In this document: in pieces, positions 8,784 through 29,310 of the stretch
Position numbering within the stretch: the stretch's first letter is position 1
Layout: each line of letters opens with the position of its first letter
Source: an uncultured Desulfosarcina sp.
GTDB lineage: Bacteria > Desulfobacterota > Desulfobacteria > Desulfobacterales > Desulfosarcinaceae
Length of the DNA stretch: 64,000 nt
Reading direction: 5' to 3'
Assembly (NCBI GenBank): GCA_963674945.2
Contig: CAXXWQ010000001.1
Span: forward strand, 96,001 to 160,000
Made by a program: the position numbers and the translations under genes
The notes under the pieces: generated by a model
Database searches by the model: none
What the model was told of the DNA's origin: nothing
Seen by the model: only the letters and a program-made list of their open reading frames with translations

Positions 8784-10709
8784 ATGCCATTGACGCGTTT
8801 GAGGCATATCTTTTCAGTCGCAATGCTTGCGATAGCGATGTCGCCGGCGTTTTCTGTCAATGCCGGTGGAGATGCCGCAGCGCTTTCCCAACGGACGCCG
8901 AAGCACATACTCATCCTCAATTCCCATTCTCCGGACCTGCCCTGGCAGCAGATCGTCAACCGATCCATCGTCGCCACTTTGGAAAATTCCCCCGATCTTT
9001 CAACGAAAATTCACACCGAGTTCACCGGTCTCGCGCAATATGGCGACCGGGCCTATACGGAAAAACTGGCCGAACTGTACCGCCATAAATATGCCGGCCG
9101 AAAAATGGATCTGGTCATATCCGTGGATAATCCGGCCACCAATTTCATACTCGACCACGGAAAAGCACTGTTTCCGGACGTACCGGTAGTGCTGATTTCC
9201 GAAGAGGACAAGATCAAAGGGCTCGTCCTGCGGCCCAACATGACCGGGCTTCTCTCGGAAATCGACGTGAGGGGAACGCTCGACCTCATTCTTCATCTGC
9301 ATCCGAACACCAAACAGATCGCCGTTATATCCGGGAGTTCCGAGACGGACCGGTTCTATGAGGAAAAGGCCCGGCGTGTCTTTCAAACGTACGTGGATCG
9401 TGTGAAATTCATCGATCTGACCGATCTTTCCATGGCCCGACTCATGGATGCGGGGCGGCGGCTTCCCGCCGACACCATCGCTTTGTATATCGTGACGCTG
9501 GTGGATAAATCCAAAGAGGCGTTTATTCCCAAACGGATTTTACCCCGGCTTTCCCGGGCCATCAATGCTCCTTTATACGGTCTGTGGGATACCTTACTCG
9601 GCAGTGGGATCGTGGGGGGGAGCCTGTCCAGCGCCGAGTTTGCCGGAAGGCGGGTTGCCGGGATGGGAATCGACATCCTGAAAGGAAAATCTCCGGAACG
9701 TATTCCCATCGTTTCCGGCTCAAATGCGTTCATGTTCGACTGGCGGCAGCTTCGACGCTGGAATATCGACGAAAATGATTTGCCTCCGGGGAGCGTGGTC
9801 CGATTCAGGGAGCCGTCGCTCTTTGATCTTTACAAGTGGCATATCATCGGCATCACGGGCTTTGTTCTGATCGAGACGCTGCTCATTTTCATTCTCCTGC
9901 TCCATCGCGCCAGGCGCCGCCAGGCGGAGAAATCCCTTCAAACGGCCCACGACGAGCTGGAGCATCGGGTAACGGAACGCACCGCCGAACTGACGGTGAC
10001 CAATGAGCGGTTACGAAAAGAAGTTGCCGAACGTATGGAAGCCCAGAAGGCGCTGGCCGATTCAGAGCGCCGGCTTACCGATATCATCAACTTCTTGCCT
10101 GATCCGACCTGGGCGATCGACATAGACGGGCGGGTGATCGCCTGGAATCTTGCCATGGAACGGTTGACCGGGGTCGACAAAAAGGAGATGATCGGCAAGG
10201 GTGACTACGCCTATGCGTTTCCGTTTTACGACAAGCCACGACCCGTATTGATCGACTTTTTACTTCATCCGCAAGAAGATTACGAGAAAGAATATCTGTC
10301 CATAAACAGGGAAGAAGAAGCCCGGATTATTTCAGGTGTGGCCTTTAATCCCGAAAGGGGTAAACGTGGGCAGTATCTGGCCGCCACGGCAGCCAAACTC
10401 TTCGATGCAAACGGTGATGTGGTCGGTGCCATCGAATCCGTGAGGGATATCACGAAAGACAAGCTTGCCGAGCGGGAGCGTGAACGCCTCATCGAAGAAC
10501 TGAAAGATGCAATCGGCAAGGTGAAGACCCTGAGCGGAATGCTGCCCATCTGTTCTTCCTGCAAGAAGATTCGGGACGACAAGGGGTATTGGAACCAGAT
10601 TGAATCCTATCTGGCGCGACATTCCGAAATCGATTTCAGCCATGGTCTGTGTCCCGAGTGCATGGACAAATTGTACGGCAATCAACCGTGGTATAAAAAA
10701 CGCAAATGA
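8784..10709 (+). CDS. Membrane sensor: periplasmic substrate-binding domain, TM, coiled coil, PAS, C-terminal Cys/His motif; no kinase domain
   Basis: Signal peptide; ILILNS...GIVGG...MFDWRQLRRWNI; TM helix; PAS (LPDPTWAID...WN); terminal LPICSSCKKIRDDKGYW...FSHGLCPEC. Confidence 0.85.
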   Translation: MPLTRLRHIFSVAMLAIAMSPAFSVNAGGDAAALSQRTPKHILILNSHSPDLPWQQIVNRSIVATLENSPDLSTKIHTEFTGLAQYGDRAYTEKLAELYRHKYAGRKMDLVISVDNPATNFILDHGKALFPDVPVVLISEEDKIKGLVLRPNMTGLLSEIDVRGTLDLILHLHPNTKQIAVISGSSETDRFYEEKARRVFQTYVDRVKFIDLTDLSMARLMDAGRRLPADTIALYIVTLVDKSKEAFIPKRILPRLSRAINAPLYGLWDTLLGSGIVGGSLSSAEFAGRRVAGMGIDILKGKSPERIPIVSGSNAFMFDWRQLRRWNIDENDLPPGSVVRFREPSLFDLYKWHIIGITGFVLIETLLIFILLLHRARRRQAEKSLQTAHDELEHRVTERTAELTVTNERLRKEVAERMEAQKALADSERRLTDIINFLPDPTWAIDIDGRVIAWNLAMERLTGVDKKEMIGKGDYAYAFPFYDKPRPVLIDFLLHPQEDYEKEYLSINREEEARIISGVAFNPERGKRGQYLAATAAKLFDANGDVVGAIESVRDITKDKLAERERERLIEELKDAIGKVKTLSGMLPICSSCKKIRDDKGYWNQIESYLARHSEIDFSHGLCPECMDKLYGNQPWYKKRK

Positions 10710-12166
10710 AATCCCTGATCAACATATTGTGCCATTGGCGCAACGCGGCATCAATCCAGGAGGTGGAAATGACCTGCAGTGAAAGTGCTGTTTCTTACGG
10801 ATATCGAGTTCAATGTACCCCGATACATCGTCAGGTGAGTGTAAAAAAACAGGATCATCAAACATCGAAAAGAGAACTGAAAATTATGTGGATACTGATT
10901 GTAACCATGATCTGGATTATCTGCATGCCATTTCCGGCCACAGCCGGAGGGATATTTGTCAACAGTCAGCAGAGCGCCGAATACATAAGGCTCTTCAACC
11001 GCAACGCCGCAACGGACAATGCCGACATTGCCTATTATAACATGGCGGGACTGACCAGGATGGAAGACGGTCAGTACGTAAATGGCAGCAATATGTTCTT
11101 TTTTCAAAAAGCAACGGTTGAGACCCATAACAACGCAATCCTGGGTGACCGGGAATATGTGTCCGACAACCCGTTCCTTCTCTTTCCCAATTTCTACTAT
11201 GTCTATAAAAAGGCGGACTGGGCTGCATTTTGTGCATACCAGACCATCGGCGCAACAGCGGTCAGGGAATGGGAGGATGGTCTGCCCACCCTTGACCTTT
11301 TGGGGGCATTATTTTTGGGTGGCCAGGTCGAATCGTATCTGAAAGGCGAGTCAGCCTACTACTGTTTGCGGATCGGCGGGGCGAAGGAGATCAACAACAT
11401 CTTTTCAGTGGGTTTATCCGGAAGATATGTCTACACGACCCAGAAAGTGAAAGGAAGGGTAAGCAGCAGCGTTTCGGAGGACCTGGTCATTGATGCGGAG
11501 GATGAGGGAGACGGTCTGTCCTTCTCACTCAATGTCAATATCACTCCCAATCCGGAATGGAACATCGGTATCACCTATGAACACACAACCGAGATTGAGC
11601 TGGAAACATCCGTGAACAGCGAAGACAATGAAGAAGACATATTAAGACCATTGCTTGGCTTTGTCGTTTTTGAAGACGGGCGCAAGTCCAGACTAGACCT
11701 GCCCCAAATTCTGCGCACCGGCGTTTCCTACCATATCACGCCACGTTTGCGGACAGAAGTCTCCTTCAATATTTATTTTGAAGACCATGTCAACTTCAGT
11801 TATCTTGGGGATTCATACAAAGAAGATTATGGGAATACATACGAACTGGGGGGATGCATTGAATATACGGTTTCCGACAGACTGAAGATCAGTGCGGGAA
11901 CATTGTATAACTGGATCGGCCAGGATGAGAATTCCACCACCGACATCAGCGTACCCGGCGGACACTCGGATTACATTACCTTTGCCGGAGGATTCCAGTA
12001 TGGAATTACCGAGAACTTACTGCTTAACACCGGCGTCTGTTATACGGGATTTATAGACACCTATGAGGCCAAGGATGAATACGCAGATATGGTATCACCG
12101 GGTGCAACGCTGGAATACAATAAGCAGTATATCGTTATCGCACTGGGGGCGCAGTACAGGTTCTGA
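10706..12166 (+). CDS. FadL/OmpP1-type outer-membrane transporter (true start probably ATG 10886)
   Basis: Signal peptide; N.QQSAEYIR..NRNAATD.AD..YYN.AGL; alternating beta-strand pattern; C-terminal YRF. Confidence 0.75.
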   Translation: MKSLINILCHWRNAASIQEVEMTCSESAVSYGYRVQCTPIHRQVSVKKQDHQTSKRELKIMWILIVTMIWIICMPFPATAGGIFVNSQQSAEYIRLFNRNAATDNADIAYYNMAGLTRMEDGQYVNGSNMFFFQKATVETHNNAILGDREYVSDNPFLLFPNFYYVYKKADWAAFCAYQTIGATAVREWEDGLPTLDLLGALFLGGQVESYLKGESAYYCLRIGGAKEINNIFSVGLSGRYVYTTQKVKGRVSSSVSEDLVIDAEDEGDGLSFSLNVNITPNPEWNIGITYEHTTEIELETSVNSEDNEEDILRPLLGFVVFEDGRKSRLDLPQILRTGVSYHITPRLRTEVSFNIYFEDHVNFSYLGDSYKEDYGNTYELGGCIEYTVSDRLKISAGTLYNWIGQDENSTTDISVPGGHSDYITFAGGFQYGITENLLLNTGVCYTGFIDTYEAKDEYADMVSPGATLEYNKQYIVIALGAQYRF

Positions 12167-12205: not shown

Positions 12206-13981
12206 CTATGGGTAGGTCCTGGGTGGATCGTCGAAGAAAAGATTTTCCAGTTTTTCGCACCATTGACGGTATCGGCCGGCAAGGTCCTGCTTAACGTCAT
12301 CGGGGAAACGATTCAGTCGCCTGTGTATGCGGGTAAGGGCCCGTTCGCATTGACTGCCCATCTTTGCCAAATGCCGAAACGCCTCCTGGGGCGCCTTCGT
12401 TCCACCCTGCCGGCAAAAGGCCAACCCACGTGACAAATCGTCGTAGACCCGTTCCATTTCCATGGCCAGTCCCTCCGCCTTGAGCGTTTGCCGGGTTATG
12501 TTGCGAAAATGGTGTCCCTGGATGGCCATGCGAACGGCTTCGGCAAATACATGCCGGTTCTTGAAGAGGTTCCTGAACAAAAATCCGAGATAGCGGTGAC
12601 CGTAGCCACTGAAGGTTTGCCGGATCAATGAGCGAAACAGCATGACCGTTTCCGACCAGCCGATGGGCCGTTGAAATCCATCCGTCCGTTCCATTCGGTC
12701 CATGAGACGGTTGCAGCGGCCGAAATAGGCGATCATGCCATCGTCGTAGAGGGCGGTAAGAATCTTTCGATATCCCTTTTTGAGTTGGTCCTCGGGCATG
12801 CGTGTCTTGAAATTGGTGGTCATCTGGTGGGTGTTGTTACCGATGCTGTCCCCCACAAGGCGGCCTTCTTCTTTCAGCCGGTGATGCAAGGCCGTTCCCG
12901 GAAGGGCGCTCAAGACCCCCACCATGGCCTTGGGAATTCCGGCCTGTTGAATGAAGGCGATCTGCCGGTCGAAGATGTCCGCCGTGTCGCTGTCGAACCC
13001 CAGGATAAAGCCGGCGGTGACTTCCATGCCCTTTTTCTGGATGCGAAGAACGGATTCCTGAAGATCCATTTTCAGGTTCTGCAGCTTGCCGGTCTCTTTC
13101 AGCGAAGCGGCAGACGGGGTCTCGATGCCGACAAACACCTCATTGAAACCCGCATCGACCATGAGGTCGAGCAATTCATCGTCACCGGCCAGATCGACAC
13201 TGGCCTCGGTGAAGAACTGAAAGGGTCGATTCCGCCGGCGCTGCCAGTCGATCAATCGCGGCAGCAGTTCGCCCTTGACCCGTTTGCGGTTGCCGATGAA
13301 ATTGTCGTCCACTACGAAGACGGCGCCTTTCCACCCCAGACGATACAAACTGTCGAGTTCGCCAACGATTTGTTCTGCCGTCTTGACCCGCGGCCGATTG
13401 CCATACATCTGCCAGATGTCGCAAAATTCGCATCGAAACGGACACCCCCGGGAATATTGGATGGTCATGGAGGCATAGGCGGCAAGGTCCAGCAGTTCGA
13501 ACCGGGGCCGTGGCGACCGGGCCAGGTCCGGTAGACCCGCCGGGGACAAACGGGGTGGGGCGCATCCTTTTTCCAGGTTTCGGAAAAAGGTGCCGAACGT
13601 CTCCTCCACCTCTCCGGCGAGCACATGATCGACCCCCGCCATCTCTTGCGGACATGCGGTCGGGTAGGGGCCTCCCGCCACCACCGTTCGATTCAGCCGG
13701 TTGCAGGCCGACACCACCTCGTGAAATGAATCCTTCTGCACGATCATGGCCGTCACCATCACCGCGTCTGCCCATAGCAGATCCGCATCGGTCAGGGGAT
13801 TGATGTTCAGATCGACCAGTTTCAGGCGACAGCGGTCGGGAAACAGAGCGGCCAGGGTGATGAGTCCCAACGGCGGCATGGCACTTTTTTTTCCGATGAT
13901 TTTCAGGCTGTAATGAAAACTCCAGAAGGTATGTTTCGGGACTTTGGGATAAACCAGCAACACCTTGTTTATGGCAGGCAT
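12206..13981 (-). CDS. B12-binding radical SAM protein (HpnP-like architecture with DUF4070-type tail), putative methyltransferase
   Basis: LLVYP...TFWSF...PPLGL B12 domain; SRGCPFRCEFC; VDDNFIG; AAGGAGG RBS before ATG 13981. Confidence 0.85.
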   Translation of the reverse strand: MPAINKVLLVYPKVPKHTFWSFHYSLKIIGKKSAMPPLGLITLAALFPDRCRLKLVDLNINPLTDADLLWADAVMVTAMIVQKDSFHEVVSACNRLNRTVVAGGPYPTACPQEMAGVDHVLAGEVEETFGTFFRNLEKGCAPPRLSPAGLPDLARSPRPRFELLDLAAYASMTIQYSRGCPFRCEFCDIWQMYGNRPRVKTAEQIVGELDSLYRLGWKGAVFVVDDNFIGNRKRVKGELLPRLIDWQRRRNRPFQFFTEASVDLAGDDELLDLMVDAGFNEVFVGIETPSAASLKETGKLQNLKMDLQESVLRIQKKGMEVTAGFILGFDSDTADIFDRQIAFIQQAGIPKAMVGVLSALPGTALHHRLKEEGRLVGDSIGNNTHQMTTNFKTRMPEDQLKKGYRKILTALYDDGMIAYFGRCNRLMDRMERTDGFQRPIGWSETVMLFRSLIRQTFSGYGHRYLGFLFRNLFKNRHVFAEAVRMAIQGHHFRNITRQTLKAEGLAMEMERVYDDLSRGLAFCRQGGTKAPQEAFRHLAKMGSQCERALTRIHRRLNRFPDDVKQDLAGRYRQWCEKLENLFFDDPPRTYP

Positions 13982-14255
13982 GGACAGCCTCCTTGACGGA
14001 CATCCCATAAAGATTGGATTGGAAGTGATGTTTTCTATTCATGTGGGCCAAGCTGATTTACCATAGATCAACCCCATGACGGCATAAAGCGCTATCTTGG
14101 AATTGACAAAAGTTTTACATTGCCCATTTTGCGATTTCGTTTTCAACCGGTTCGGTTCCGGTGAGAATTAGATGAGCGCATTTTTACCATTAAGAAAATT
14201 TGAAACGCACAGTCACGGTTTGATATCCATCATCTTCCCATCAGGCAATCCAATC

Positions 14256-14283
14256 CTGACGGCCCGCTAGTGCCGGGCTAACA
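14256..14283 (+). promoter_or_regulatory. Degenerate CTAACA repeats at 11-bp period (Pho-box-like)
   Basis: ctgacg 14256, ctagtg 14267, ctaaca 14278. Confidence 0.3.
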
Positions 14284-14323
14284 AAACGGCGATAGGTTGC
14301 AATGGACAGGGAAAGGAGGTGCC

Positions 14324-14617
14324 TTGGGTTCGATGGTCACCGGCCTGCGTTGTCCGCGATGTTCTGCCGACGCGCTATACAGTTATGGGCGTATCAAAAA
14401 CGGAAAGCAGCGGTACCTCTGTCTGGTGTGCAACCGTCAATTCGTCCCCGATGCAACCTTTCGTGCGGTGATGAAAGACCGCCCCACGTGCCCCTTATGC
14501 GGGTCAAAGATGCATATCTACCGGCGTGAGGCCGAACAGATCCGGTTTCGATGCGCCAACTATCCGGATTGCAGGGGGTACGGGAAATGGAAAAAGCGAA
14601 ATCGTGATGGCAACTGA
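14324..14617 (+). CDS. Small double zinc-ribbon protein (IS1 InsA-like ribbon plus topoisomerase C4-like ribbon)
   Basis: CPRC...YGRIKNGKQRYLCLVCNRQF followed by CPLCGSKM...FRCANYPDC; AAGGAGG RBS before TTG 14324. Confidence 0.75.
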   Translation: MGSMVTGLRCPRCSADALYSYGRIKNGKQRYLCLVCNRQFVPDATFRAVMKDRPTCPLCGSKMHIYRREAEQIRFRCANYPDCRGYGKWKKRNRDGN

Positions 14618-14630
14618 GGCAAAGCATCCG

Positions 14631-17600
14631 TCAGTTTGCGAGCATGGCGGTCAGATTGGCCCACAGCACCCGAAGTTTCAGACCGATGGGGGGCTTTGGT
14701 CCTCTCTCCTCTTCCTGCCTGATGGCGAACTGAATTTCCGGCGCTTTCGTCGAAACCCGATTGCCGGCGAATACACTTACGATGGTGGCATAATACCGCC
14801 GCCCTTTAATGAACGGCAGATGGGGTGCGTATCGTTCGACGCGAAGCTGATTGCCCACCGCAGGATAAACGGCTTCGTAATCACCGGGACGGATACCGCA
14901 GAGAATGCGGTAATGGGCCTGCGGGTCGCGATTGTTGTCCCAGCTGAATTGCACCGAGCCGTCCTGGTAGGCGGCGACCAGACCACCGGGTGGCTGGAGG
15001 CGTTGAAACTGCTCTGGCCGGTGCGGATGATCGCTCGCGGAAATCACCAGGGGTGGATTGGAAAATGCCGCAAGATTCCGACGGATGGACGCGGGCATCT
15101 TTTTTCCCGGGAAGAAGGCCAGCATGAGGGAAAAGGTTTGTTGGACGCCGTTGTAGGTGGGGCCCGAACTGGCATACTGCTCACCTGTCATCGCGGTGAT
15201 CTCGAATCCGTTGCCGTTTCCATGGCCAGGATGGGCATATTGCCGACCGTGATAGGTCCCGAAGGGGTTGATGTGCACGGCAAAGGTCTGGTTCTCGTTG
15301 CGATACAGCAGTTTCAACGGTGCAAAGGCGAAGTTGGCCTGCAGGCTATTGTCCATGGCCACGGCCATGGCGCGGTTGCCTGCACAGACGCCCATATAGG
15401 ATGCGGTGATATGATTGTTGACATCGTCGAGATTCAAATTGCGGTCGCCGTGACGGAAGTAATCGAGAGCATAGGACGTAGCGACCCCCAGATAGTTTTC
15501 TTTCATGATTCGAACCGGATCGGTTCTCGTCGTTTCCGGTGCAAAGCGTATCTCCGCAGGCGCCACCCCCTGCCAGTTGAGATCGGCCCTTCGCTTGAGA
15601 CCGGCAGTGCCGACCTTGAGGAAATCGGCCGTTATCGTCGTCGGGTATCGCACGGTGCCCTGGAGGATGAGGCAGGGCAAATCATCCACCAGGGTCAACC
15701 GGTAATCGAACCAGCCGTTGCTTCGGGTCTGCCCGGCAGGGCCCGGAAAGGATCCGCTCATTCGAAGCGCGGTCGGAGAACTTTTGTCTTTTTTCATCAT
15801 CAGGCGGATCTCGGGCCGCGCCGGGTAGACTTTCCCCTTCCAACGGACATAGGGTACAAGGCTGCCTTCCAGGGTCTGCCGGATGCCGTCCAGATAGATG
15901 CCGTCGATGCGATCGTCGTCAAATCGGATGGAAAGGTGCCGGTTGGCCAATTCCTTTCGGACCACTTGGCCCGGATTGTGGTGGATTTTTGTATTGCGTG
16001 CACGATCCGGGATTTCGGCCTGATAGATACGATAAATACCATCGGTGAGTTCTTCCGGCCGATCCACGGACAAGAGCATCGGCGAATCCTCCCGACCATC
16101 CGCAGCATCGGCCAAATGGGTTGCGGTCAACAGATGCCCGTCGGCACCCGCCAGAACCAGCGGCCCTTTTTCTTCATAACCGGCCGGACGCGGAATCTTC
16201 AGGAAACGACTTGGTGGAGCGGTCTTTTTTGAATCACCGGACAACACCAGAACCGTATCCAGGGGTAATGGGGAGGGATCGCTTGCAGTTTTCAACGGCA
16301 TGTGCGGAAGATGCTGCCGGAGTCCATCGGACAGCAACTGCGCAAGGTTGTCCGAATAGGCGTCGAGGTCATTCATGAGCCGGGCCATGGCCTGCTCGCG
16401 CTGTCGGGCCACATAGGGCGTCGCCATGCCGAAATGGGTCGTGGACAGGGCGCGCAGACGCGTCAGTCTGGCGAAATGGATGAGATTGTCCAACTTCGTC
16501 ACATCCAGATTCTCTTTTACCATCTGTCTGGCCCGGACGGCCGCGTTGCACACCCGTCGGCTGCGGGCGATGACCGTCCAGTAGGACGAAGTTTCCGCTT
16601 TTTCCGCCCACGAGTTGTAGCCATCGTAACTGCCGTCGGCGGTATCCTGGCTGAAAGAGAAGGTCCCCACCGGCGGGTGTTGGTCCAGGTATGCACCAAG
16701 GGTGGTAAACTGAACGTGGTCGAGGTCTTTCACCTCGTCGATCAATGCGCCGAGGCCATTGGTACTCGGCAGCCATTCCAGCGGCCAGGGCAGGTCGATG
16801 CCGTTCCATAACTCCGAATCTGCGTCGAAATTGATAAAGATCAAGGCATCCGTCATAAGCCGGCCGGTGTTCTGCAGATGGCGCAGATCACAGACCCAAT
16901 TGGCCAGGCTGACATGCTCCACCAGGTCGCCAATATGGTAGGTGGGAATGACCACCATCTCCTCGCCGGTTTCCGGATGGCGGTAAAGGATGGGGTTGTG
17001 GGCCTCTTCCCTGGTCAATGGGCGGCAAAAGACGCTGAAGGCATCGAAGGGCGTCGCGCTATAGTAAAGGGACACCGCCTTGATCCCGTATTTTTTGTAT
17101 ACGGAAAAGCTGCCGGGGGTGGTCATCATCTCCTGGGGCCGAACGATGGGGGTATAGGTGCCGAAGAGATCCTTCACCCCGCTTTGCCAGGGATTGGTGA
17201 TGGACCAGCGAACGGCATCATCCAGTTCATCATGGGTCATGGCCGATACCAGACCGTTGTTGTATGACATCAGGATGACCTCGTCTCCCCATTGATGGAC
17301 GCGCCGCCGGATATCCGCGATGATATCCGGCGCATGGCGGGGCAAAATCTCCTGCAGCGAAAACAGATTGTCAAAATCCCATATCCCCCTGACGGGAATC
17401 CCGGCGGCATTGAACCGGTCCAGTGTCCGGATCGTATGGCGGATGATTCGAATATCCTTGCCGAATCCGCTCTCATCCATGGTGTCGTTGCGAAACGAGT
17501 GGTAGAGATTGACATGGAAGCCGAAGGCGATGAAAATCCGGTGTTTCGATGGGGACGGATGGTCACCGGTGCCGGCCAGGACCAATAGTATGGGAAAGGC

Positions 17601-17666
17601 CGTGGCGACAAGGAGTACGCATATAGCAAGCCGTCTGCGCCTGAATAATTGTAAAATCGCCATCAT
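14631..17666 (-). CDS. Large exported protein with GH57/GH38-like (NodB-like barrel) N-terminus and FnIII-like C-terminal domain
   Basis: N-terminal signal/TM segment; GFHVNLYHS, RPQEM, NFDADSE, FTTLGAYL and YNSWAE motifs; C-terminal PPGGL...FSW...YRI...YYATIVS. Confidence 0.6.
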   Translation of the reverse strand: MMAILQLFRRRRLAICVLLVATAFPILLVLAGTGDHPSPSKHRIFIAFGFHVNLYHSFRNDTMDESGFGKDIRIIRHTIRTLDRFNAAGIPVRGIWDFDNLFSLQEILPRHAPDIIADIRRRVHQWGDEVILMSYNNGLVSAMTHDELDDAVRWSITNPWQSGVKDLFGTYTPIVRPQEMMTTPGSFSVYKKYGIKAVSLYYSATPFDAFSVFCRPLTREEAHNPILYRHPETGEEMVVIPTYHIGDLVEHVSLANWVCDLRHLQNTGRLMTDALIFINFDADSELWNGIDLPWPLEWLPSTNGLGALIDEVKDLDHVQFTTLGAYLDQHPPVGTFSFSQDTADGSYDGYNSWAEKAETSSYWTVIARSRRVCNAAVRARQMVKENLDVTKLDNLIHFARLTRLRALSTTHFGMATPYVARQREQAMARLMNDLDAYSDNLAQLLSDGLRQHLPHMPLKTASDPSPLPLDTVLVLSGDSKKTAPPSRFLKIPRPAGYEEKGPLVLAGADGHLLTATHLADAADGREDSPMLLSVDRPEELTDGIYRIYQAEIPDRARNTKIHHNPGQVVRKELANRHLSIRFDDDRIDGIYLDGIRQTLEGSLVPYVRWKGKVYPARPEIRLMMKKDKSSPTALRMSGSFPGPAGQTRSNGWFDYRLTLVDDLPCLILQGTVRYPTTITADFLKVGTAGLKRRADLNWQGVAPAEIRFAPETTRTDPVRIMKENYLGVATSYALDYFRHGDRNLNLDDVNNHITASYMGVCAGNRAMAVAMDNSLQANFAFAPLKLLYRNENQTFAVHINPFGTYHGRQYAHPGHGNGNGFEITAMTGEQYASSGPTYNGVQQTFSLMLAFFPGKKMPASIRRNLAAFSNPPLVISASDHPHRPEQFQRLQPPGGLVAAYQDGSVQFSWDNNRDPQAHYRILCGIRPGDYEAVYPAVGNQLRVERYAPHLPFIKGRRYYATIVSVFAGNRVSTKAPEIQFAIRQEEERGPKPPIGLKLRVLWANLTAMLAN

Positions 17667-17768
17667 CGCTGATTTTGCCTCTTTCCGATGTTCCCTTCTT
17701 TTGTGCCAGTAAAATAGCAGCGATCAACAATTGTCTCCTGAGACCAGCGATACGACGCTAATTTTTAC

Positions 17769-17796
17769 CTAACAAACTTCTAACACAAACCTAACA
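17769..17796. promoter_or_regulatory. Three perfect CTAACA hexamers at 11-bp period (PhoB/PhoP-type box)
   Basis: CTAACA at 17769, 17780 and 17791. Confidence 0.6.
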
Positions 17797-17869
17797 CTCA
17801 TATGGGATGAAAACAACGAAAGCGTAAGAGGTTTCGCCATTACTTTCCCTACTTCTATCCCCTGTGCTG

Positions 17870-17908
17870 CTAACAGAAAACAAACATCGGTCTCATCCGC
17901 CCCTAATC
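17870..17908 (+). promoter_or_regulatory. Four degenerate CTAACA hexamers at 11-bp period
   Basis: ctaaca 17870, caaaca 17881, ctcatc 17892, ctaatc 17903. Confidence 0.5.
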
Positions 17909-17967
17909 TTCATTTTCTATATTTTGATTGTCTTTATGTTGATGAACTCGTAAAAAGTAGGATTTCG

Positions 17968-18091
17968 GGCGGTTTCGTAAAAAGTTCGAGATCAAGGCTT
18001 GCAAGTCCCGAGGAATGAGGCGTACATGTAGTACTCCGCAGTGACGAGGGGTGAAGCGTAACGCCGATATCGGACTTTTTACGAAATCGTC
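17968..18091. repeat. MITE/REP-like palindromic element, copy 1 (extra left end at 17939-17958)
   Basis: Ends GGCGGTTTCGTAAAAAGTTCGAGATC and GATATCGGACTTTTTACGAAATCGTC; interior is similar to 30367-30512. Confidence 0.85.
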
Positions 18092-18125
18092 AATAATTGA
18101 AAAGAAGAGAGACAGTCAATCCACT

Positions 18126-19472
18126 ATGATACGCTACGCCAAGCAATCCTCCATCGGCACCGCACTGCAGTCCATCAAGAAATTCGGCCGTAATCGCATT
18201 CCCGGCCAGGTGGTCATCCAGACCACCAACCGCTGCAACGCCCGATGCCCCCAGTGCGGCATGCGGAAAAGTGCCGACATCCCACGCACATCCCTTGGCG
18301 ACGAAACCGTGATCCGGATTCTGGATGCCTGTGTCGAGCGCGGCGTGCAGGCGGTTTCGTTTACCGGCGGCGAGCCTCTGCTGATGTTCGCGCGCCTCAT
18401 CGAATGGATCGACTATGCCGGCAAGGTCGGGATACAATTCATCCGAACCGGCACCAACGGCTTCGTTTTCTGTAATTCAGACCGTCCCGGTTTCACGGAT
18501 CGCATCAAACGGATGGCCGAGCGTCTGGCATCCACCCCGCTCAGAAATTTCTGGATCAGCCTGGATTCTCACATCCCCGAGGTCCATGAGCAGATGAGGG
18601 GACTTTCCGGCGTCGTCCGGGGGATTGAAAAGGCGCTGCCCATTTTTCATGCGGCAGGGCTTTATCCGTCGGCCAATCTGGGGATCAATCGGCTCGTCGG
18701 GGGGGAACGGACCAGAGAGCCTCTGGCACAGTACGGCTCGCAGCGCCAGTTGTATCTGGAAGCATTTCAAGCCCGATTCGCCGAAGCGCTGGACCAGTTT
18801 TTCCGGTTCGTGAACGACCTGGGTTTTACCATCGTCAACACATGCTATCCCATGAGCATTGGCGAAGAAGAGAAAAACACAGGACTGACCGCCGTCTACT
18901 CGGCCACTGCAACAGATGATATCGTCCGGTTTGCCGACGATGAGAAAGCCATACTTTTCAAGGCACTACTGGATACCGTCCCACGCCATCGCGACCGTTT
19001 ACGAATTTTCTCTCCGTTAAGCTCGGTATATATGCTCTACCGTACTTACAGCAAAGGGCAGAAATCCGTACCTGCCTCTGGATGCCGGGGCGGCGTGGAT
19101 TTCTTCTTCATCGATGCCAACGGTGGTGACACCTACCCATGCGGTTACCGGGGAGATGAAAATCTGGGAAAATTCTGGGATCTGGACTTGAACCAACGGC
19201 GTCCAGAACAGAATTGCCTTCGATGCGATTGGGAATGCTTTCGCGATCCCTCGGAGATGTGTGCGCCATTTCTGCAGGGACTGCATGAACCCGCCAAGAT
19301 GATCCGCAAGATGACAGGCGACCCCATTTACCGGCGGCTTTGGTTGAGCGATATACGATACTACCGTTTCTGCGACTTTTTCGATGGCCGCCGCCCTGCC
19401 GGCACCAGAGAACTGCATCGTTTTTCCACCCCATCTTCATCAAAAACTATTACTTCGCTAACACCCGCCTAA
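18126..19472 (+). CDS. Radical SAM protein with SPASM/twitch-like C-terminus
   Basis: CNARCPQC, FTGGEPL, GTNG; CRGG...YPCGYR...CLRCDWEC. The upstream extension in the ORF track derives from the repeat element. Confidence 0.85.
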   Translation: MIRYAKQSSIGTALQSIKKFGRNRIPGQVVIQTTNRCNARCPQCGMRKSADIPRTSLGDETVIRILDACVERGVQAVSFTGGEPLLMFARLIEWIDYAGKVGIQFIRTGTNGFVFCNSDRPGFTDRIKRMAERLASTPLRNFWISLDSHIPEVHEQMRGLSGVVRGIEKALPIFHAAGLYPSANLGINRLVGGERTREPLAQYGSQRQLYLEAFQARFAEALDQFFRFVNDLGFTIVNTCYPMSIGEEEKNTGLTAVYSATATDDIVRFADDEKAILFKALLDTVPRHRDRLRIFSPLSSVYMLYRTYSKGQKSVPASGCRGGVDFFFIDANGGDTYPCGYRGDENLGKFWDLDLNQRRPEQNCLRCDWECFRDPSEMCAPFLQGLHEPAKMIRKMTGDPIYRRLWLSDIRYYRFCDFFDGRRPAGTRELHRFSTPSSSKTITSLTPA

Positions 19473-19474
19473 TT
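19447..19474 (+). promoter_or_regulatory. Three degenerate CTAACA hexamers at 11-bp period
   Basis: ctatta 19447, ctaaca 19458, ctaatt 19469; upstream of the PHP-GT4 gene. Confidence 0.45.
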
Positions 19475-19602
19475 CTTCAATAGTTATAAGTAGACCAATT
19501 TATTTTGGCCTGAAATTAGGTTTAACGATGATGCTGATCATCGTTGAGATGGTTAACACAACTCAACAAATATTTCCCAAGTCCCAAGAAGAAAAGGGGG
19601 AT

Positions 19603-22050
19603 ATGCCCATGCGGATCGATGCTCATGTGCATTCAAAATTCTCAAAAAGACCGAGTCAGTGGATATTGCAGAAAATCGGATGTCCGGAAAGCTTTACCGA
19701 ACCCCTTACGCTCTATCAGATCGCCAAGAGCCGGGGGATGAGTCATGTGACCATTTCCGACCACAACACCATCGACGGTGCTCTTTCCATTGCTCACCTT
19801 CCAGATACCTTCATCAGCGAAGAGATTACCACCTACTTCCCGGAAAGCGGCTGCAAGGTGCATGTGCTGGCCCTGAACATTGATGAGTCCCATCACCGTG
19901 AGATCCAGAAGATTCGAAACAACATCTTCGACCTGGCGGTATACCTCAAAGAGCAGAACATCCTTTCCATCGTGGCCCATCCCCTCTATGCCATCAACGA
20001 TAAACTGACGCTGGATCATTTCGAGCAGATGCTGTTGCTGTTCGAGAACTTCGAACTCAATGGTGCCCGAAATGCACGCGAAAATGAAACGTTGCGCCAT
20101 CTGATGGGGGAGTTGCGGGAAAAGGACATGGCCGCGCTTTCCGACAAGCATGGTATCGACCCATTGTATCCCGCCTGCCGGGGAAAAAGGCTGTGGGGCG
20201 GTTCCGATGATCACAGCGCATTGAACATCGCCCGCACATATACCCGAATCAGGAATGTGCGTCATCCCCAACTTCTCAGGGGAGATGCTCCATTGACCGA
20301 TATAGAAGTGGTATGCCAACCGGCGACGCCGCTTACGATGGCCCATAATCTTTACGGCATCGCCTATCAATACTATTGCAGCAAATTCGGCCTGGGTCGC
20401 TATCGGGACAAGGATGAACTGATGCGCTTTCTCGATCGCAATCTGCGTGTGGATTACAACAGGCACACGGGGTTTTTGTCCAGACTCTATCTTTTTTGGA
20501 ATTATCGCAGGGAAAAAAGGATCAAAGAGCCGGTCTCCGATTCACTCATGTCCCTGCTGCGCCACGAGACGAGCAAATTGATTCATGACGATCCCCGGTT
20601 CTTCGAAGAGACCCGAAGACCCGTAGACGATGATCACCAGGAAAAGCGTTGGTATGCCTTCGTAAACCGGGCATCCAAGCGGGTGATGGTGCATTTCGGA
20701 GACCATCTCATGGGACATCTTTCGGGGGCCAATTTCTTCAACATCTTTTCCACCATCGGATCGGCAGGCGGCCTGTATACCTTGATGGCCCCATATTTCG
20801 TGGCCTACGCACAGTTCGCCAAAGACCGTGCCTTCAGCGAGCAGGTCAGGGTGCGATTCGATCGCTCTCATGAGAATTCGGGAAGCCGGCCTTTCCGGAT
20901 GGCCCATTTCACCGACACCTATTATGAGGTCAACGGCGTGGCCAAGACCCTGCAGCAACAGGTGTACTACGCGCTGAAAAACAACATGGCCTACTCTCTG
21001 GTCACCTGTTACACGGAGGTTGAGGCCACGGACCAGCCCGGCGTACGCAATTTCAAGCCCATCGGCACCTATGAACTCCCCGAGTACCCTGAGCTGAAAA
21101 TCCATTATCCGCCCTTTCTGGAGATGCTGGCCTATTGTTACGACGAGCGGATCGACCATATCCACTCGGCCACGCCGGGGCCTGTGGGCCTTGCGGCCCT
21201 GGCCATTTCCAAAATACTGAAGCTGCCCATCAGCGGCACGTATCATACCGCCATACCCCAATATGCGCAGATTCTAACCGGAGACGATGCCATCGAAGAG
21301 CTCACCTGGAAGTATGTCCTCTGGTACTACGATCAACTGGATGCCATTTATGCCCCGTCCCAAAGTGTCAAGGATGAACTGGTGGCCAAGGGTCTCAATT
21401 GCGAAAAGATCAGACTCTATCCCCGGGGGATTGACGTGGATCTGTTTCATCCGGCCAAACGTAACGGCATTTTCCAAAGACGCTACCCACTGGGTAAAGG
21501 CATCAAACTGCTCTATGTGGGCCGTGTTTCCAAAGAGAAAAATCTGGACCTGCTCGCCGATGCGTTCAGACAGCTGGTCAAAGACGTTGAACGGGTCCAG
21601 CTGGTCGTAGTCGGCGATGGTCCCTACCTGGACCAGATGCGTGCCGAGTTGGAAGGCCTGCCGTGCTGTTTCACCGGTTATCTGAGAAATGAGAATCTGG
21701 CATCGGTGTATGCTTCTTCCGACGTGTTTGTCTTTCCCAGCACAACAGACACATTCGGCAATGTGGTGCTCGAGGCCCAGGCGTCGGGTCTGCCGGTCAT
21801 CGTCAGTGACCAGGGCGGTCCCTGCGAGAATATGATTCAAGGACAAACCGGCCTCATTTGCAGGGCCGATGACACAAAAAGCCTGCTCGATGCCATCCGG
21901 TCGATATTGTCCGACCCCGACGGCCGCCGGGCCATGGGGCAGGCCGCCCGCCAGTATGTAGAAAAACGATCCTTCGAAAACGCCTTCCTGAAAATGTGGG
22001 AGCTCTATCGGGATCCGGATGGCGACCGGCTGGTAGTCGCCCACGCATAG
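19603..22050 (+). CDS. PHP-domain / GT4 glycosyltransferase fusion (putative glycolipid synthase)
   Basis: DAHVHS, ISDHN, AHP and GGSDDH (PHP). FTDTYYEVNGVA, YVGRVSKEKN and FPSTTDTFGNVVLEAQASGLPV (GT4). Confidence 0.9.
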   Translation: MPMRIDAHVHSKFSKRPSQWILQKIGCPESFTEPLTLYQIAKSRGMSHVTISDHNTIDGALSIAHLPDTFISEEITTYFPESGCKVHVLALNIDESHHREIQKIRNNIFDLAVYLKEQNILSIVAHPLYAINDKLTLDHFEQMLLLFENFELNGARNARENETLRHLMGELREKDMAALSDKHGIDPLYPACRGKRLWGGSDDHSALNIARTYTRIRNVRHPQLLRGDAPLTDIEVVCQPATPLTMAHNLYGIAYQYYCSKFGLGRYRDKDELMRFLDRNLRVDYNRHTGFLSRLYLFWNYRREKRIKEPVSDSLMSLLRHETSKLIHDDPRFFEETRRPVDDDHQEKRWYAFVNRASKRVMVHFGDHLMGHLSGANFFNIFSTIGSAGGLYTLMAPYFVAYAQFAKDRAFSEQVRVRFDRSHENSGSRPFRMAHFTDTYYEVNGVAKTLQQQVYYALKNNMAYSLVTCYTEVEATDQPGVRNFKPIGTYELPEYPELKIHYPPFLEMLAYCYDERIDHIHSATPGPVGLAALAISKILKLPISGTYHTAIPQYAQILTGDDAIEELTWKYVLWYYDQLDAIYAPSQSVKDELVAKGLNCEKIRLYPRGIDVDLFHPAKRNGIFQRRYPLGKGIKLLYVGRVSKEKNLDLLADAFRQLVKDVERVQLVVVGDGPYLDQMRAELEGLPCCFTGYLRNENLASVYASSDVFVFPSTTDTFGNVVLEAQASGLPVIVSDQGGPCENMIQGQTGLICRADDTKSLLDAIRSILSDPDGRRAMGQAARQYVEKRSFENAFLKMWELYRDPDGDRLVVAHA

Positions 22051-22117
22051 GAACGTCACATGAGACGATGGGTCGTTATCATGCCGTATAATCATTTATC
22101 ATCATGATGGAAATTCC

Positions 22118-23986
22118 ATGGAAAACAGATCTTCGCCGTCTACTCTCGCCAATGACAGATTAATCCAGCTGGACAGACAATTCCATCATCCGATTTCCCG
22201 CCACATGGCGGCCTGGGGGACTCGCCGTGTGGAACGATTGCTGTCTGTGGATAAGATAAATGAAATTTATGCAATGCTAATGCGCACGCCCGGGGCGGAA
22301 CGACCCTTCGGTGCCATCTTGCAGCTGCTGGAGATAATGTATGGTGTGACGGATTCGGAAATGGCGAGAATTCCGGTCCAGGGACCGCTGGTGGTGGTTG
22401 CCAATCATCCTTTCGGAGGAATCGAGGGAATCATTCTCGGAGATCTGTTGCGCCGGGTCCGGCCGGATGTCAAGATCATGGGAAACTACCTGCTGAAAAA
22501 AATTGCTCCCATCCGCGATGCCATCATTCCCGTCGATCCCTTCGGCCACAAGTCGTCGATTGCGGGAAATGCAAAGACATTCAGGCAATGCCTGCGATGG
22601 TTGAAAGAGGGACGGTGTTTGATCGTTTTTCCCGCCGGCGAGGTCGCCCATTACTGTTTCCGGCATCATGCGGTGACCGATCCTCCATGGAGTCGCCATG
22701 TGGGCGCATTGGTCCGCCTGAGCCGCGCCCAGGTGCTGCCCGTCTATTTCCCCGGAAGAAACAGCATACTGTTTACCCTCATGGGATTGATTCATTCCCG
22801 GTTGCGCACCGTCATGCTTGCGCGGGAATTGATATCAAAGAGAAAGACATCCATCCGTTTGTCTATCGGCCGTTGTATCACCAGCAGGCGGATGCAGACC
22901 GTTGATGATGATACGGAGTTGATTCATCGGCTCCGGCTCAAGACTTACCTGCTTTCCGATGCCGCAGATACAAAGGGTGTTTTTCCCGCAGCAAAAAAAA
23001 CGAGCGGGCGATACCAAAAAGACAAACGTCTCGCACAACAACCATTGGTTTTTTCGGTACCCACCGGCCGATTGGCGGAAGAGATCGATGCCCTGCCGGA
23101 AAACCAAATGCTCGTTGCCCACAAGAAATGGGCCGTGTATGTCGCAGACAGCCGTCAGATTCCCCATCTTTTGCGCGAGATCGGCAGGCTCCGGGAAAAA
23201 ACGTTCCGGGAAGTTGGCGAAGGAACCGGTAAATCCATGGACCTGGACCTGTTCGATCGCTTCTATCGGCAACTGATCTTGTGGAACCGGGAGACCCGTG
23301 AAGTAGTCGGTGGGTATCGAATGGGAGACACACGTGCCATTTTGCAGCGGTTCGGGCGAAAGGGACTGTATACCCACTCGCTGTTTCACCTCAAGACCGG
23401 TTTGTTGCGCCATCTGGGAGAAGCTTTGGAACTGGGCCGCTCCTACATCCGATCCGAATACCAGCGACAGCCCAATTGTCTTGCCCTGCTATGGAAAGGA
23501 ATCGGCGCTTACGTGGTACAAAATCCCCGATATCGCATCCTGTTCGGCCCGGTGAGCATCAGCAACAGCTACCACCGCGTTTCCAAGCAGATCATGGTGC
23601 AATTTTTAGAACGGCACTGTTCGACCAGGGAACTGGCCGCCTATGTGAGACCACGATGCCCGCTGGGTACGTGCTCCGATCCGCTGCTTCTGGAACTGGT
23701 CGACCGAATGTCCGAAGATTCCATCGACGATGTGTCCATGCTGGTTTCCGAGATCGAGGATGATGGAAAACGGGTGCCCGTGCTCATCAAGCACTACCTG
23801 AAGCTCAACGGCCGCTTTATCGCCTTCAATGTGGATCGAAACTTTTGTGACGCCATCGACGGGCTGGTCGTGGTGGACATGATGCAGACCGAGAAGAAAC
23901 TGCTCGAGCGGTTCATGGGAAAAGAGCAGTGCAGGCGTTACCGTGGGCAGTGGTCCTCAGAACGGATCGGAACCGGTTTGCGATAA
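22118..23986 (+). CDS. PlsC-type acyltransferase fused to GNAT (OlsB-like) domain; OlsF-like ornithine/amino-lipid synthase
   Basis: VANHPFGGIEG and FPAGEV; then EIGRLRE.TFR.VGEGTG..DLD.FD, LELGRS and LFGPVSIS. Confidence 0.8.
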   Translation: MENRSSPSTLANDRLIQLDRQFHHPISRHMAAWGTRRVERLLSVDKINEIYAMLMRTPGAERPFGAILQLLEIMYGVTDSEMARIPVQGPLVVVANHPFGGIEGIILGDLLRRVRPDVKIMGNYLLKKIAPIRDAIIPVDPFGHKSSIAGNAKTFRQCLRWLKEGRCLIVFPAGEVAHYCFRHHAVTDPPWSRHVGALVRLSRAQVLPVYFPGRNSILFTLMGLIHSRLRTVMLARELISKRKTSIRLSIGRCITSRRMQTVDDDTELIHRLRLKTYLLSDAADTKGVFPAAKKTSGRYQKDKRLAQQPLVFSVPTGRLAEEIDALPENQMLVAHKKWAVYVADSRQIPHLLREIGRLREKTFREVGEGTGKSMDLDLFDRFYRQLILWNRETREVVGGYRMGDTRAILQRFGRKGLYTHSLFHLKTGLLRHLGEALELGRSYIRSEYQRQPNCLALLWKGIGAYVVQNPRYRILFGPVSISNSYHRVSKQIMVQFLERHCSTRELAAYVRPRCPLGTCSDPLLLELVDRMSEDSIDDVSMLVSEIEDDGKRVPVLIKHYLKLNGRFIAFNVDRNFCDAIDGLVVVDMMQTEKKLLERFMGKEQCRRYRGQWSSERIGTGLR

Positions 23987-24672: not shown

Positions 24673-24948
24673 ATGAACAAGCTCGAACTGATACAGGCAC
24701 TGAAAGAAACCAATGGCCTATCCAGATCAGAAGCGGAAGATGTCGTGAACCTGTTTTTCAATACAATATCAGATGCACTGGCCAAAGGAGATCGCGTCGA
24801 AATACGGGGCCTCTGTTCTATTTTCGTGAAGGAGTACGGGGCCTATACGGGACGCAATCCCAAAACGGGTGAGAAAGTGAAGATCAGACCGAAAAAACTT
24901 CCCTTTTTCAAGGCGGGCAAGGAACTGAAAGAAAGAGTCGACCGTTGA
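24673..24948 (+). CDS. ihfB: Integration host factor beta-like protein
   Basis: GDRVEIRGL...GRNPKTGE...PFFKAGKELKERV; TTGACA at 24585 upstream. Confidence 0.8.
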   Translation: MNKLELIQALKETNGLSRSEAEDVVNLFFNTISDALAKGDRVEIRGLCSIFVKEYGAYTGRNPKTGEKVKIRPKKLPFFKAGKELKERVDR

Positions 24949-25046
24949 AATTCGCCATGCTTTGTTTCGTACATCAGTGTTTCCGCCTCTGACAAGAGGC
25001 CATTCGAATAGTTGTCAACACCAACACAAATCAAGAAGGAGGCCAC

Positions 25047-25310
25047 ATGACCAAAGCTGAACTCATCGAGAAGATCGCAAAGGATGCCGACATCCCGAAA
25101 ACCACCGCAAAAGCAGCATTCGATTCTGCTCTCGATGGCATCAAGACAGGACTCAAGAAGAGGAATAGCAAGGTTACATTGGTCGGATTTGGAACCTTTC
25201 GAAACATTTATCGGAAAACCCGTATGGGCCACAATCCCCAGACTGGTGAGAAAATCAAAATCAAAGGTCGAAGCGTGGTGACGTTCAAGCCAAGCAAAAA
25301 CATTCCCTAG
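25047..25310 (+). CDS. hup: HU family DNA-binding protein
   Basis: MTKAELIEKIA...VTLVGFGTF...NPQTGE...FKPSK; AAGGAGG RBS. Confidence 0.85.
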   Translation: MTKAELIEKIAKDADIPKTTAKAAFDSALDGIKTGLKKRNSKVTLVGFGTFRNIYRKTRMGHNPQTGEKIKIKGRSVVTFKPSKNIP

Positions 25311-25320
25311 TTTTTGATAT

Positions 25321-25368
25321 TTTGCCATTCAGAGTGATCCATGATCGTGGACCACTCTGAATGGCAAA
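25321..25368. terminator. Long hairpin, probably a bidirectional terminator
   Basis: TTTGCCATTCAGAGTG...CACTCTGAATGGCAAA between convergent units. Confidence 0.75.
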
Positions 25369-25372
25369 CGCT

Positions 25373-25750
25373 TCAGGAATCTCGGAATCCGAAGCAGTCC
25401 CGTCGGTATTGATTTAAGAGATTGCTCTTCCCGCCTTCTTTTTTCATTTTGAGATAGCTTGCCCGGCTGTTTTCTTGCAGCTCCCCCGTCCGGTTACCGC
25501 CCGCAGCTCCCGGCTGGTCGTCATGTGCATTCCTTTCCCCATACTGCGATTGTAGGGCCTTGCCGCAAAGACGATTCACCAGGGTGGATTTGCCGGCATC
25601 GGAAGATCCGATCATGGTGATCGTCTCACCTGTTGACAGATATTCTTCCAGCGGGATCAACGTTATGGGATCCGGCCCAGAGACAAGGTGTACCGGGACG
25701 CCGAAGGCAACGGTTTCCAGCTGTGCCGAAAAATGGGATGTCCACCCCAT
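25373..25750 (-). pseudogene. rsgA: Degraded RsgA GTPase remnant
   Basis: GETITMIGSSDAGKSTLVNRL (altered P-loop); GKGMHMTTSREL in a shifted frame; GEL...SYLKMKKE; large deletions. Confidence 0.7.
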
Positions 25751-28990: not shown

Positions 28991-28993
28991 GGG

Positions 28994-29272
28994 TTATCCT
29001 CCGGTCGTCGAAAGAAAGTACTTCCAGAACGGATTGGCGAAAATCAGTATCATGGCCACCACGAAACAATAGATGGCCGTCGATTCCACCATGGCCATGC
29101 CCACGAACAGGGTTCGGGTGATGGTACTGGTCTCGTCCGGCTGCTGGGCGATTGATCCGAGTGCCTGGGCAAGGGCACGCCCCTCGCCAAGGGCCGGCCC
29201 GATGGCACCGATGGCCATGCAGACTCCCGCCGACAGAATTGATGCCAAAGCGACCCAACCGAGTGTGTCCAT
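28994..29272 (-). CDS. atpE: N-ATPase c subunit with Na+-binding signature
   Basis: GPALGEG (Glu in helix 1) and ESTAIY. Confidence 0.95.
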   Translation of the reverse strand: MDTLGWVALASILSAGVCMAIGAIGPALGEGRALAQALGSIAQQPDETSTITRTLFVGMAMVESTAIYCFVVAMILIFANPFWKYFLSTTGG

Positions 29273-29310
29273 AGGATTCCCCCCCATATAATTGGCGATT
29301 TCGCGACAGG

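Follow-up and report, generated by a model that had tools for sequence, protein, structure and literature searches.

The block examined here lies at positions 12206 to 23986 of a 64,000-nucleotide stretch of DNA (the window) from an uncultured Desulfosarcina sp. (contig CAXXWQ010000001.1) and comprises six adjacent genes, together with Pho-type promoter repeats and a dispersed palindromic element. Close named matches place the organism among Desulfosarcinaceae-type sulfate reducers. An earlier note had read the six genes as one undescribed phosphate-starvation membrane-remodelling system with two radical SAM enzymes. All six open reading frames (ORFs) are present over this span, but their strands (−, +, −, +, +, +) do not form a single conserved cluster or operon. 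A single transcript is possible only for the last three genes, encoding a radical SAM protein, a PHP-GT4 fusion and an OlsF-like fusion, the last of which starts 67 bp past the end of the PHP-GT4 gene on the same strand. The core of the block consists of two of these genes, those for the PHP-GT4 fusion and the SPASM/twitch-like radical SAM protein. The features are as follows.

12206-14008, minus strand: HpnP-like B12 radical SAM protein with DUF4070 (Pfam; likely start, 13981)
14297-14617, plus strand: small double zinc-ribbon protein with an IS1/InsA-like N-terminal ribbon (likely start, 14324 or 14333)
14631-17666, minus strand: GH57-fold glycoside hydrolase/transglycosylase, membrane-anchored or exported, 1011 aa, with a beta-sandwich and an FN3-like C terminus (predicted structure)
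17757-17800, plus strand: strong Pho-type box, four units with an 11-bp period, 34.5 bits
17869-17912, plus strand: weaker Pho-type box, four units, 13.8 bits; likely radical SAM promoter
17939-18093: dispersed palindromic element of ~155 bp, between box and radical SAM start
18126-19472, plus strand: SPASM/twitch-like radical SAM protein (unnamed family), a candidate for the tailoring of glycolipid head groups
19435-19478, plus strand: weak Pho-type box upstream of PHP-GT4, 12.2 bits
19609-22050, plus strand: PHP phosphoesterase-GT4 glycosyltransferase fusion, likely a glycosyl- or glucuronosyl-diacylglycerol synthase
22118-23986, plus strand: OlsF-like fusion of an O-acyltransferase and an N-acyltransferase, likely a synthase of ornithine lipid or another amino acid lipid

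The domain labels proposed earlier held in Pfam searches (B12-binding, radical SAM and DUF4070; zinc ribbon; radical SAM; GT4; acyltransferase and GNAT), and the PHP domain of the fusion retains all of its metal motifs. These motifs (DxHxH, DH, E, H and DxH), which we take to be the metal ligands, correspond to D31, H33, H35, D78, H79, E99, H151, D227 and H229, with conservation of 92% or more across 36 homologues. The label "SPASM-type" fitted the second radical SAM protein in part: Pfam SPASM was not matched, but five C-terminal Cys residues (C320, C338 and a CxxCxxxC motif) are invariant in 23 homologues, as are CxxxCxxC and GGEP, and SPASM/twitch-like is the fair label.

Gene neighbourhoods were compared in 40 genomes of relatives (full-length PHP-GT4 in 18; neighbourhoods of up to 20 kb, four of them shorter), in a phylum sample of 180 genomes (PHP-GT4 in 20), in the best 80 of 286 GTDB loci of PHP-GT4, some of which repeat genomes already counted, and in the best 80 of 407 metagenome loci of the radical SAM gene, 36 of which are well flanked, with 3 kb on both sides. 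In an order sample of 300 genomes, 75 carried the radical SAM gene and the 28 best-scoring loci were inspected. The radical SAM gene adjoins PHP-GT4 in 12 of its 13 carriers among the relatives, lies beside it in 4/4 carriers of the phylum sample (4/180 genomes), is at most 1.5 kb away in 25 of the 28 order loci and is near it in 27/36 well-flanked metagenome loci. Around PHP-GT4 itself, 12 of the 18 neighbourhoods of relatives contained the radical SAM gene and 5 an OlsF-like gene (three of these partial or frameshifted), while the GH57-like, zinc-ribbon and B12 radical SAM genes were found in 0/18. Of the 20 phylum neighbourhoods, 7 contained alkaline phosphatase, 6 an OlsF-like gene, 6 a methyltransferase and PSD-like pair and 4 the radical SAM gene. 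Among the GTDB loci, PHP-GT4 had the radical SAM gene nearby in 19 (plus 2 partial), a methyltransferase in 29, a PSD-like gene in 28, OlsF-like, alkaline phosphatase and pstS genes in 9 each, phoU in 7, a phoB-like gene in 5, the zinc ribbon in 5, the GH57-like gene in 3 and the B12 radical SAM gene in 0. Co-occurrence with PHP-GT4 among the 40 relatives was seen for 13/13 carriers of the radical SAM gene, 11/11 of the GH57-like gene and 10/11 of the OlsF-like gene, these genomes being kin and not independent. The idea that all six genes are co-conserved was rejected in these 18, 20, 80 and 80 neighbourhoods (relatives, phylum, GTDB and metagenome), in none of which an orthologue of the B12 radical SAM gene was found near other block genes.

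The layout of the window recurs in one clade. One locus (L158) is collinear with it at 80 to 83% nucleotide identity across the zinc-ribbon, GH57-like, radical SAM and PHP-GT4 genes, with a DAG-kinase-like (diacylglycerol kinase-like) gene added and a transposase-like stretch in place of the B12 radical SAM gene; L267/L268 and L271/L272 hold four of the five block genes. In a different arrangement, seen in 28 to 29 of the best 80 of 286 GTDB loci (L164, L169, L172 and others), PHP-GT4 is directly preceded by a gene of the Methyltransf_24 family and a short one of PSD type; in only 2 of the 80 loci (L213 and L226) do these occur together with the radical SAM gene, and the pair may be an alternative tailoring module.

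A promoter motif was learned de novo by a Gibbs search of 15 pstS upstream regions of relatives only. The sequence CTAACA at an 11-bp period was recovered in 5/8 runs, and a scoring matrix was built from 14 of the regions, with the one lacking the repeat excluded. This matrix detected 40 sites of at least 13 bits in the 7-Mb genome, the second best of which is the strong box of the window (position 17768); other high sites among the 34 of 40 listed precede pstS, ppk, ppx and a phoB-like gene. Locally shuffled genomes had 85 to 93 positions of at least 13 bits, 2 to 3 of at least 20 bits and a maximum of 22.4 bits, compared with 53 and 19 positions, respectively, in the real genome. As its score lies far above the maximum of the shuffled genomes, the strong box is beyond chance. 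The three listed boxes are the only sites above 10 bits in the window, against a background of 51/4933 ORFs of the genome with an upstream score of at least 10 bits. The earlier note mentioned shared upstream repeats without specifics: the 11-bp CTAACA repeats are real, and the large inverted repeat is a genome-wide element that is not specific to the cluster.

An upstream score of at least 10 bits was obtained for PHP-GT4 in 13/18 close relatives, for the radical SAM gene in 6/14 and for the OlsF-like gene in 2/10, while operon-internal controls gave 0/29, 1/29 and 0/12. The weaker box at 17869-17912 is retained in the collinear locus. A sense box of at least 10 bits precedes the zinc-ribbon gene in 5/6 relatives (4.5 bits in this genome), and the matrix scan of this genome found no above-background box upstream of the B12 radical SAM, zinc-ribbon or acyltransferase fusion genes. 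The strong box is oriented towards the radical SAM gene and is reversed relative to the GH57-like gene; a reversed box precedes the latter gene in 10/10 relatives, in 7 of which the box also points at a divergent DAG-kinase-like gene and 3 of which have no such gene. Because the block carries the same 11-bp promoter repeats as pstS, it is likely to be a phosphate-starvation module. By comparison with the pstS promoters all three boxes are putative PhoB sites, conservation being what speaks for the two weaker ones.

The radical SAM profile gave its best PDB match with BlsE (7VOB/7VOC; E, 4e-11), a cytosylglucuronate decarboxylase that converts a glucuronide to an arabinoside (PMC3715490). Both proteins have CxxxCxxC, GGEP and a C-terminal Cys domain, and the glucuronide used by BlsE is likewise made by a partner glycosyltransferase; the substrate of BlsE is, however, a soluble nucleoside in an antibiotic pathway. 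Precedents for radical SAM chemistry on the sugar heads of glycosylated lipids are Cds (calditol synthase) and HpnJ; formation of calditol further requires a glycosyltransferase and a phosphatase of unknown identity (PMC13459092). The comparison of the window enzyme with these two is one of proposed role; they contract the ring of glucose or glucosamine, and their lipids are tetraethers of archaea or hopanoids. Searches that left most subscription journals outside their reach found no publication on the radical SAM or PHP step or on bacterial Cds homologues, and Dde_3613 (see below) turned up in a single paper.

The new observation is the presence of the radical SAM gene, in two clostridial lineages, in an operon with genes for phospholipase C, GT4 and UDP-glucose dehydrogenase. 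On Bacillota-like contigs (L317:2854-7194 and L314:4241-8417; L314/L315 are Tissierellales by cluster names), one strand encodes a Zn-dependent phospholipase C (PF00882), an unfused GT4, a member of the UDP-glucose dehydrogenase family and a radical SAM protein ~50% identical to that of the window. The best match of the clostridial GT4 in the Desulfosarcina genome is the GT4 half of the PHP-GT4 fusion (32% identity; E, 1e-60). The two dehydrogenases are 33% identical to each other and are differently placed in the operon, which suggests that UDP-glucose dehydrogenase, and with it a supply of UDP-glucuronate, was recruited separately in the two lineages. As UDP-glucuronate was apparently recruited twice, glucuronosyl-diacylglycerol is a likely substrate of the radical SAM enzyme. 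Since phospholipase C occupies the place of PHP in this operon, the operon also supports the earlier suggestion that the PHP domain feeds the fused GT4, and it is likely that this domain supplies diacylglycerol to its partner. TTTACA/TTAACA-like 11-bp repeats were seen by eye, unscored, upstream of the clostridial operons, and a plasmid search with the clostridial radical SAM protein gave no match.

Phospholipid replacement in Proteobacteria, which is under Pho control, relies on PlcP, an enzyme of phospholipase C type, to release the diacylglycerol that the GT4 enzyme Agt glycosylates. The block would share with it the phospholipase C-type source of diacylglycerol and Pho control, and would differ in that the esterase is a fused PHP domain (a Zn-dependent phospholipase C in clostridia) and in the addition of a radical SAM enzyme. 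The best NCBIfam matches of the GT4 half are lipid glycosyltransferases, every one of them below its cut-off. In Desulfovibrio alaskensis G20, a mutant of Dde_3613, an Agt homologue that makes MGDG and GADG, lost all glycolipids at phosphate limitation, and a mutant of Dde_3661, an OlsF homologue, had no ornithine lipid (PMC5193443). The supplement to that study labels Dde_3613 as both glycosyltransferase group I and PHP domain, the architecture of the window fusion, which is a match of annotation and not of sequence. Both systems thus contain a PHP and group-I glycosyltransferase and an OlsF-type fusion, which in D. alaskensis are both needed at low phosphate; there, however, the two genes are 48 locus numbers apart, whereas those of the window are adjacent, behind Pho-type boxes and with a radical SAM gene upstream. 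The term "radical SAM" is absent from the D. alaskensis text (PMC5193443). In Desulfatibacillum alkenivorans, glucuronosyl lipids appear only when phosphate is low; ~90% of its phospholipid is then swapped for glucuronosyl and BACys lipids, and no genes are named in the part of that report available (PMC11181052).

In a quick tree, the window PHP-GT4 nests with Desulfatitalea-type sequences (SH-aLRT, 97 to 100), apart from 14 congeners (100), and its identity is 89% to the collinear locus L158 compared with 57 to 62% to congeners. Replacement of the gene by lateral transfer is suggested by this placement. The adjacent OlsF-like protein matched NCBIfam OlsF over its full length at 409 bits, below the equivalog cut-off of 620, and 4/4 deltaproteobacterial OlsF-like homologues scored similarly (374 to 412 bits). 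An N-terminal O-acyltransferase and a C-terminal N-acyltransferase of OlsF type are present, with motifs retained in 22 homologues; this gene likely makes an amino-acid lipid, ornithine being the best guess for the amino acid.

Taken together, the block probably represents a five-gene phosphate-starvation module, for which PhoB control and each substrate and reaction are predicted from the genes, motifs, repeats and linkages observed. Phosphate starvation would place the five genes under PhoB-type control; the PHP domain would cut phospholipid to diacylglycerol, to which the fused GT4 would add glucuronate or glucose; the radical SAM enzyme would then rework the sugar head of glucuronosyl-diacylglycerol, perhaps by a BlsE-like decarboxylation; and the OlsF-like enzyme would make an amino-acid lipid in parallel. 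Within this scheme, decarboxylation to a pentosyl lipid and some other sugar reaction (oxidation, epimerisation or ring contraction) appear about equally probable. A more specific proposal, that the radical SAM family consists of head-group decarboxylases which convert anionic glucuronosyl- to neutral pentosyl-diacylglycerol and are fed by a single PHP-GT4 protein, is tentative, and we regard it as possible rather than probable. Phosphate-starvation lipid remodelling, as put forward in the earlier note, is favoured by the Pho-type boxes, the Pho-gene neighbours and the published Desulfovibrio mutant. Tailoring of the lipids by two radical SAM enzymes was not borne out, the B12 enzyme being unlinked and unboxed, but linkage to PHP-GT4 and the clostridial operon argue for tailoring by the other. 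The known part would be a Pho-type replacement of phospholipids by enzymes resembling Agt and OlsF, and the extension would be the fused PHP domain and the unnamed radical SAM enzyme. The description of the pathway as undescribed therefore needs qualification: its glycolipid and ornithine-lipid steps are already known in a sulfate reducer (PMC5193443), but the literature searched had no description of the GH57-like protein or of the steps assigned to PHP and the radical SAM enzyme.

Several observations weigh against this scheme. The BlsE match is limited to the barrel, the E values for YydG and MoaA are 2e-9 and 7e-9, and the BlsE family TIGR04466 gave 35.9 bits against a cut-off of 400. The clue from the clostridial operon comes from two lineages, and orthology of PHP-GT4 to Dde_3613 is read from annotation. 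The D. alkenivorans lipids in the available part of PMC11181052 include no pentosyl lipid, the status of its radical SAM gene not being established. PHP-GT4 was missing within 6 kb in 9/36 well-flanked metagenome loci. As regards the promoters, boxes of 12 to 14 bits (17869-17912 and 19435-19478) are within the chance range of the shuffles on their own; beyond close relatives, PHP-GT4 is preceded by a box in just 2/19 phylum-wide loci; and the strong box accompanies the GH57-like gene, in reversed orientation, and may not serve the radical SAM gene.

The strongest alternative is that the radical SAM gene belongs to the Pho regulon but acts in a process other than glycolipid synthesis, such as that of a ligase-PSD-Lgt triad, its adjacency to PHP-GT4 reflecting clustering of the regulon. 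In this genome (G000) the triad lies on another contig (G000:C3:8906-13439) behind its own 17.8-bit box, as part of a ligase-PSD-Lgt-DUF2062 operon (G000:C3:8906-14000; L062), and its genes stay together in 17/18 phylum loci. A model of the 804-aa ligase (pLDDT, 95) has a glutamate-cysteine ligase fold (Z, 16.9; root mean square deviation [rmsd], 4.3 Å over 401 residues); its profile had no significant match in a PDB sequence search, and the ESM Atlas returned unnamed clusters only. By arithmetic, gamma-Glu-Cys minus CO2 is C7H14N2O3S. As this fits the BACys head-group ion, C7H13O3N2S+ (PMC11181052), the triad is a candidate BACys lipid pathway. The ligase cassette lies beside PHP-GT4 in 13/18 close relatives, the triad is within 6 kb in 8/36 well-flanked metagenome radical SAM loci, and at L346, also from metagenomes, the triad is present and PHP-GT4 absent. 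The radical SAM gene was, however, found in 0/18 triad neighbourhoods of the phylum sample, the clostridial operons combine it with phospholipase C, GT4 and dehydrogenase genes and no triad, and the location of the triad on a separate contig here also argues against this alternative, which we consider unlikely.

The GH57-like protein bears on a second alternative. No Pfam match was obtained for it, its profile had no significant match in a PDB sequence search, and leads to GH38/GH57 in the ESM Atlas scored under 0.9. The structural comparison, in which the top 1000 Foldseek matches of a model with a pLDDT of 88 were re-aligned, upheld the earlier GH57/38-like label: a GH57 catalytic fold is predicted inside a chain whose overall architecture is GH38-like. 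Over its full length the model matches GH38 alpha-mannosidases (E, about 1e-19; Z, about 17), the best structural matches of the catalytic domain are GH57 (Z, 23 to 25), and this domain superposes on GH57 amylopullulanase/4-alpha-glucanotransferase (Z, 23.7; rmsd, 3.2 Å; 325 residues). It differs from both families in its ~10 to 13% identity, the lack of a Pfam match, an N-terminal hydrophobic, membrane segment, an FN3-like tail and the reversed Pho-type box. E179 is nearly invariant and D281/D283 are invariant in 120 homologues; judged by motif and not by superposition, these may be equivalent to the GH57 Glu nucleophile and Asp acid/base.

With such an enzyme, predicted to be exported, adjacent here and in several related loci, and with GT4 below every curated lipid glycosyltransferase cut-off, the block might remodel a surface glycan or small sugar conjugate that GT4 and the radical SAM enzyme build and the GH57-like enzyme trims or transfers. 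This is improbable, as the best curated matches of GT4 are nonetheless lipid glycosyltransferases, the Desulfovibrio mutant phenotype is glycolipid loss (PMC5193443), phospholipase C is the partner in clostridia, and of the 8 phylum genomes that carry the GH57-like gene, 6 are from a family in which PHP-GT4 was not found. The same count rules out, phylum-wide, the GH57-like gene as an obligate partner of PHP-GT4. In that family (f29; L243-L249), homologues occur in 6/6 genomes; most of them occupy a constant position close to rnhA/rpoD and lack a strong box, which indicates that GH57-like proteins also serve in something other than phosphate starvation. Two distant homologues lie in pho clusters of the phylum sample. 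The zinc-ribbon gene usually adjoins the 3′ end of its GH57-like neighbour, and the two are probably accessories that are co-regulated with the lipid pathway but not part of it. Together with the OlsF-like gene, they appear to be looser members of the regulon. The usual divergent partner of the GH57-like gene is a YegS/DAG-kinase-like gene (L065, L067, L068, L070-L073 and L158), with a strong box in 7/7 relatives; the copy in this genome lies elsewhere (G000:C2:307414-308364), with no repeat seen upstream.

That all six genes form one pathway, in which the B12 radical SAM enzyme methylates the new lipids, is very improbable: although the genes are adjacent in the window and this enzyme has the three-domain HpnP architecture (PMC10697835), its orthologues are missing from every neighbourhood compared, a transposase-like stretch replaces it in the collinear locus, its 17 loci in relatives (1.5-kb flanks) contained no box and no block gene, PHP-GT4 is present in only 9/15 carriers of B12 radical SAM-like genes among the 40 relatives, which is no co-occurrence, and the gene is transcribed away from the block with an upstream score of 4.7 bits. 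The B12-binding, radical SAM and DUF4070 domains that it shares with HpnP are common to many uncharacterised HpnP-like clades (PMC10697835). Squalene-hopene cyclase (TIGR01507) was not found in this genome, which is 98.7% complete, and hence a home-made hopanoid substrate would be lacking. The missing box, linkage, co-occurrence and cyclase rule out this gene as an HpnP or a member of the block, and it looks like a bystander. A PAS sensor-like gene and a FadL-type outer-membrane transporter gene (8784-12166, plus strand) converge on it, with no box; the genome has at least nine FadL paralogues.

The palindromic element at 17939-18093 gave 163 blastn high-scoring segment pairs in the genome, with about 114 copies of at least 120 nt, one more of its positions in the window being 30373-30513. 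It folds as a long hairpin (−57 kcal/mol), had no Rfam match and is missing from the collinear locus. Its genome-wide dispersal rules it out as a cluster-specific signal, and it is possibly a MITE/REP-like mobile element. Downstream of the block, a tandem pair of IHF/HU-like genes (plus strand) and a truncated RsgA-like fragment (minus strand) were recognised from sequence at 24673-25750. They are followed on the minus strand by what we take from the translations to be an alternative F-type ATP synthase operon (25805-32607) in the order beta, epsilon, a, c, b, alpha, gamma, which lies in a stretch of higher GC content (about 0.61 versus 0.54).

Elsewhere in the genome, many high-scoring boxes are crowded at G000:C3:20000-120000, a large phosphate-starvation island with ppk, ppx, CHAD, phosphonate, arsenate reductase-like, exopolysaccharide and TonB-type genes and a phoB-like regulator. 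At the top-scoring box of the genome (G000:C3:36096-39404; L063 and L347), an IS66-like insertion separates the box from genes for a 118-aa unknown protein and a zinc-ribbon paralogue, and both of these families recur near Pho genes in relatives. A reversed box on another contig (L354:4106-4500; G000:C4) lies just upstream of what is presumably a Pit-type transporter-like gene and is a possible repression site.

Anoxic waters and sediments are rich in phosphorus-free lipids, and sulfate reducers have few known genes for making them. The six-gene idea has been narrowed to a two-gene core, with a predicted substrate for a radical SAM family carried by a quarter of the sampled order genomes. The replacement of the fused PHP domain by a phospholipase C family in clostridia provides comparative support for its acting as a phospholipase C. 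A new sugar lipid, if it is the product, would be usable as a biomarker of phosphate stress, and the radical SAM reaction forming it on a membrane lipid would itself be new. If the more specific decarboxylase proposal is true, anaerobes would tune membrane charge without phosphate through a widespread family (75/300 order genomes and clostridia).

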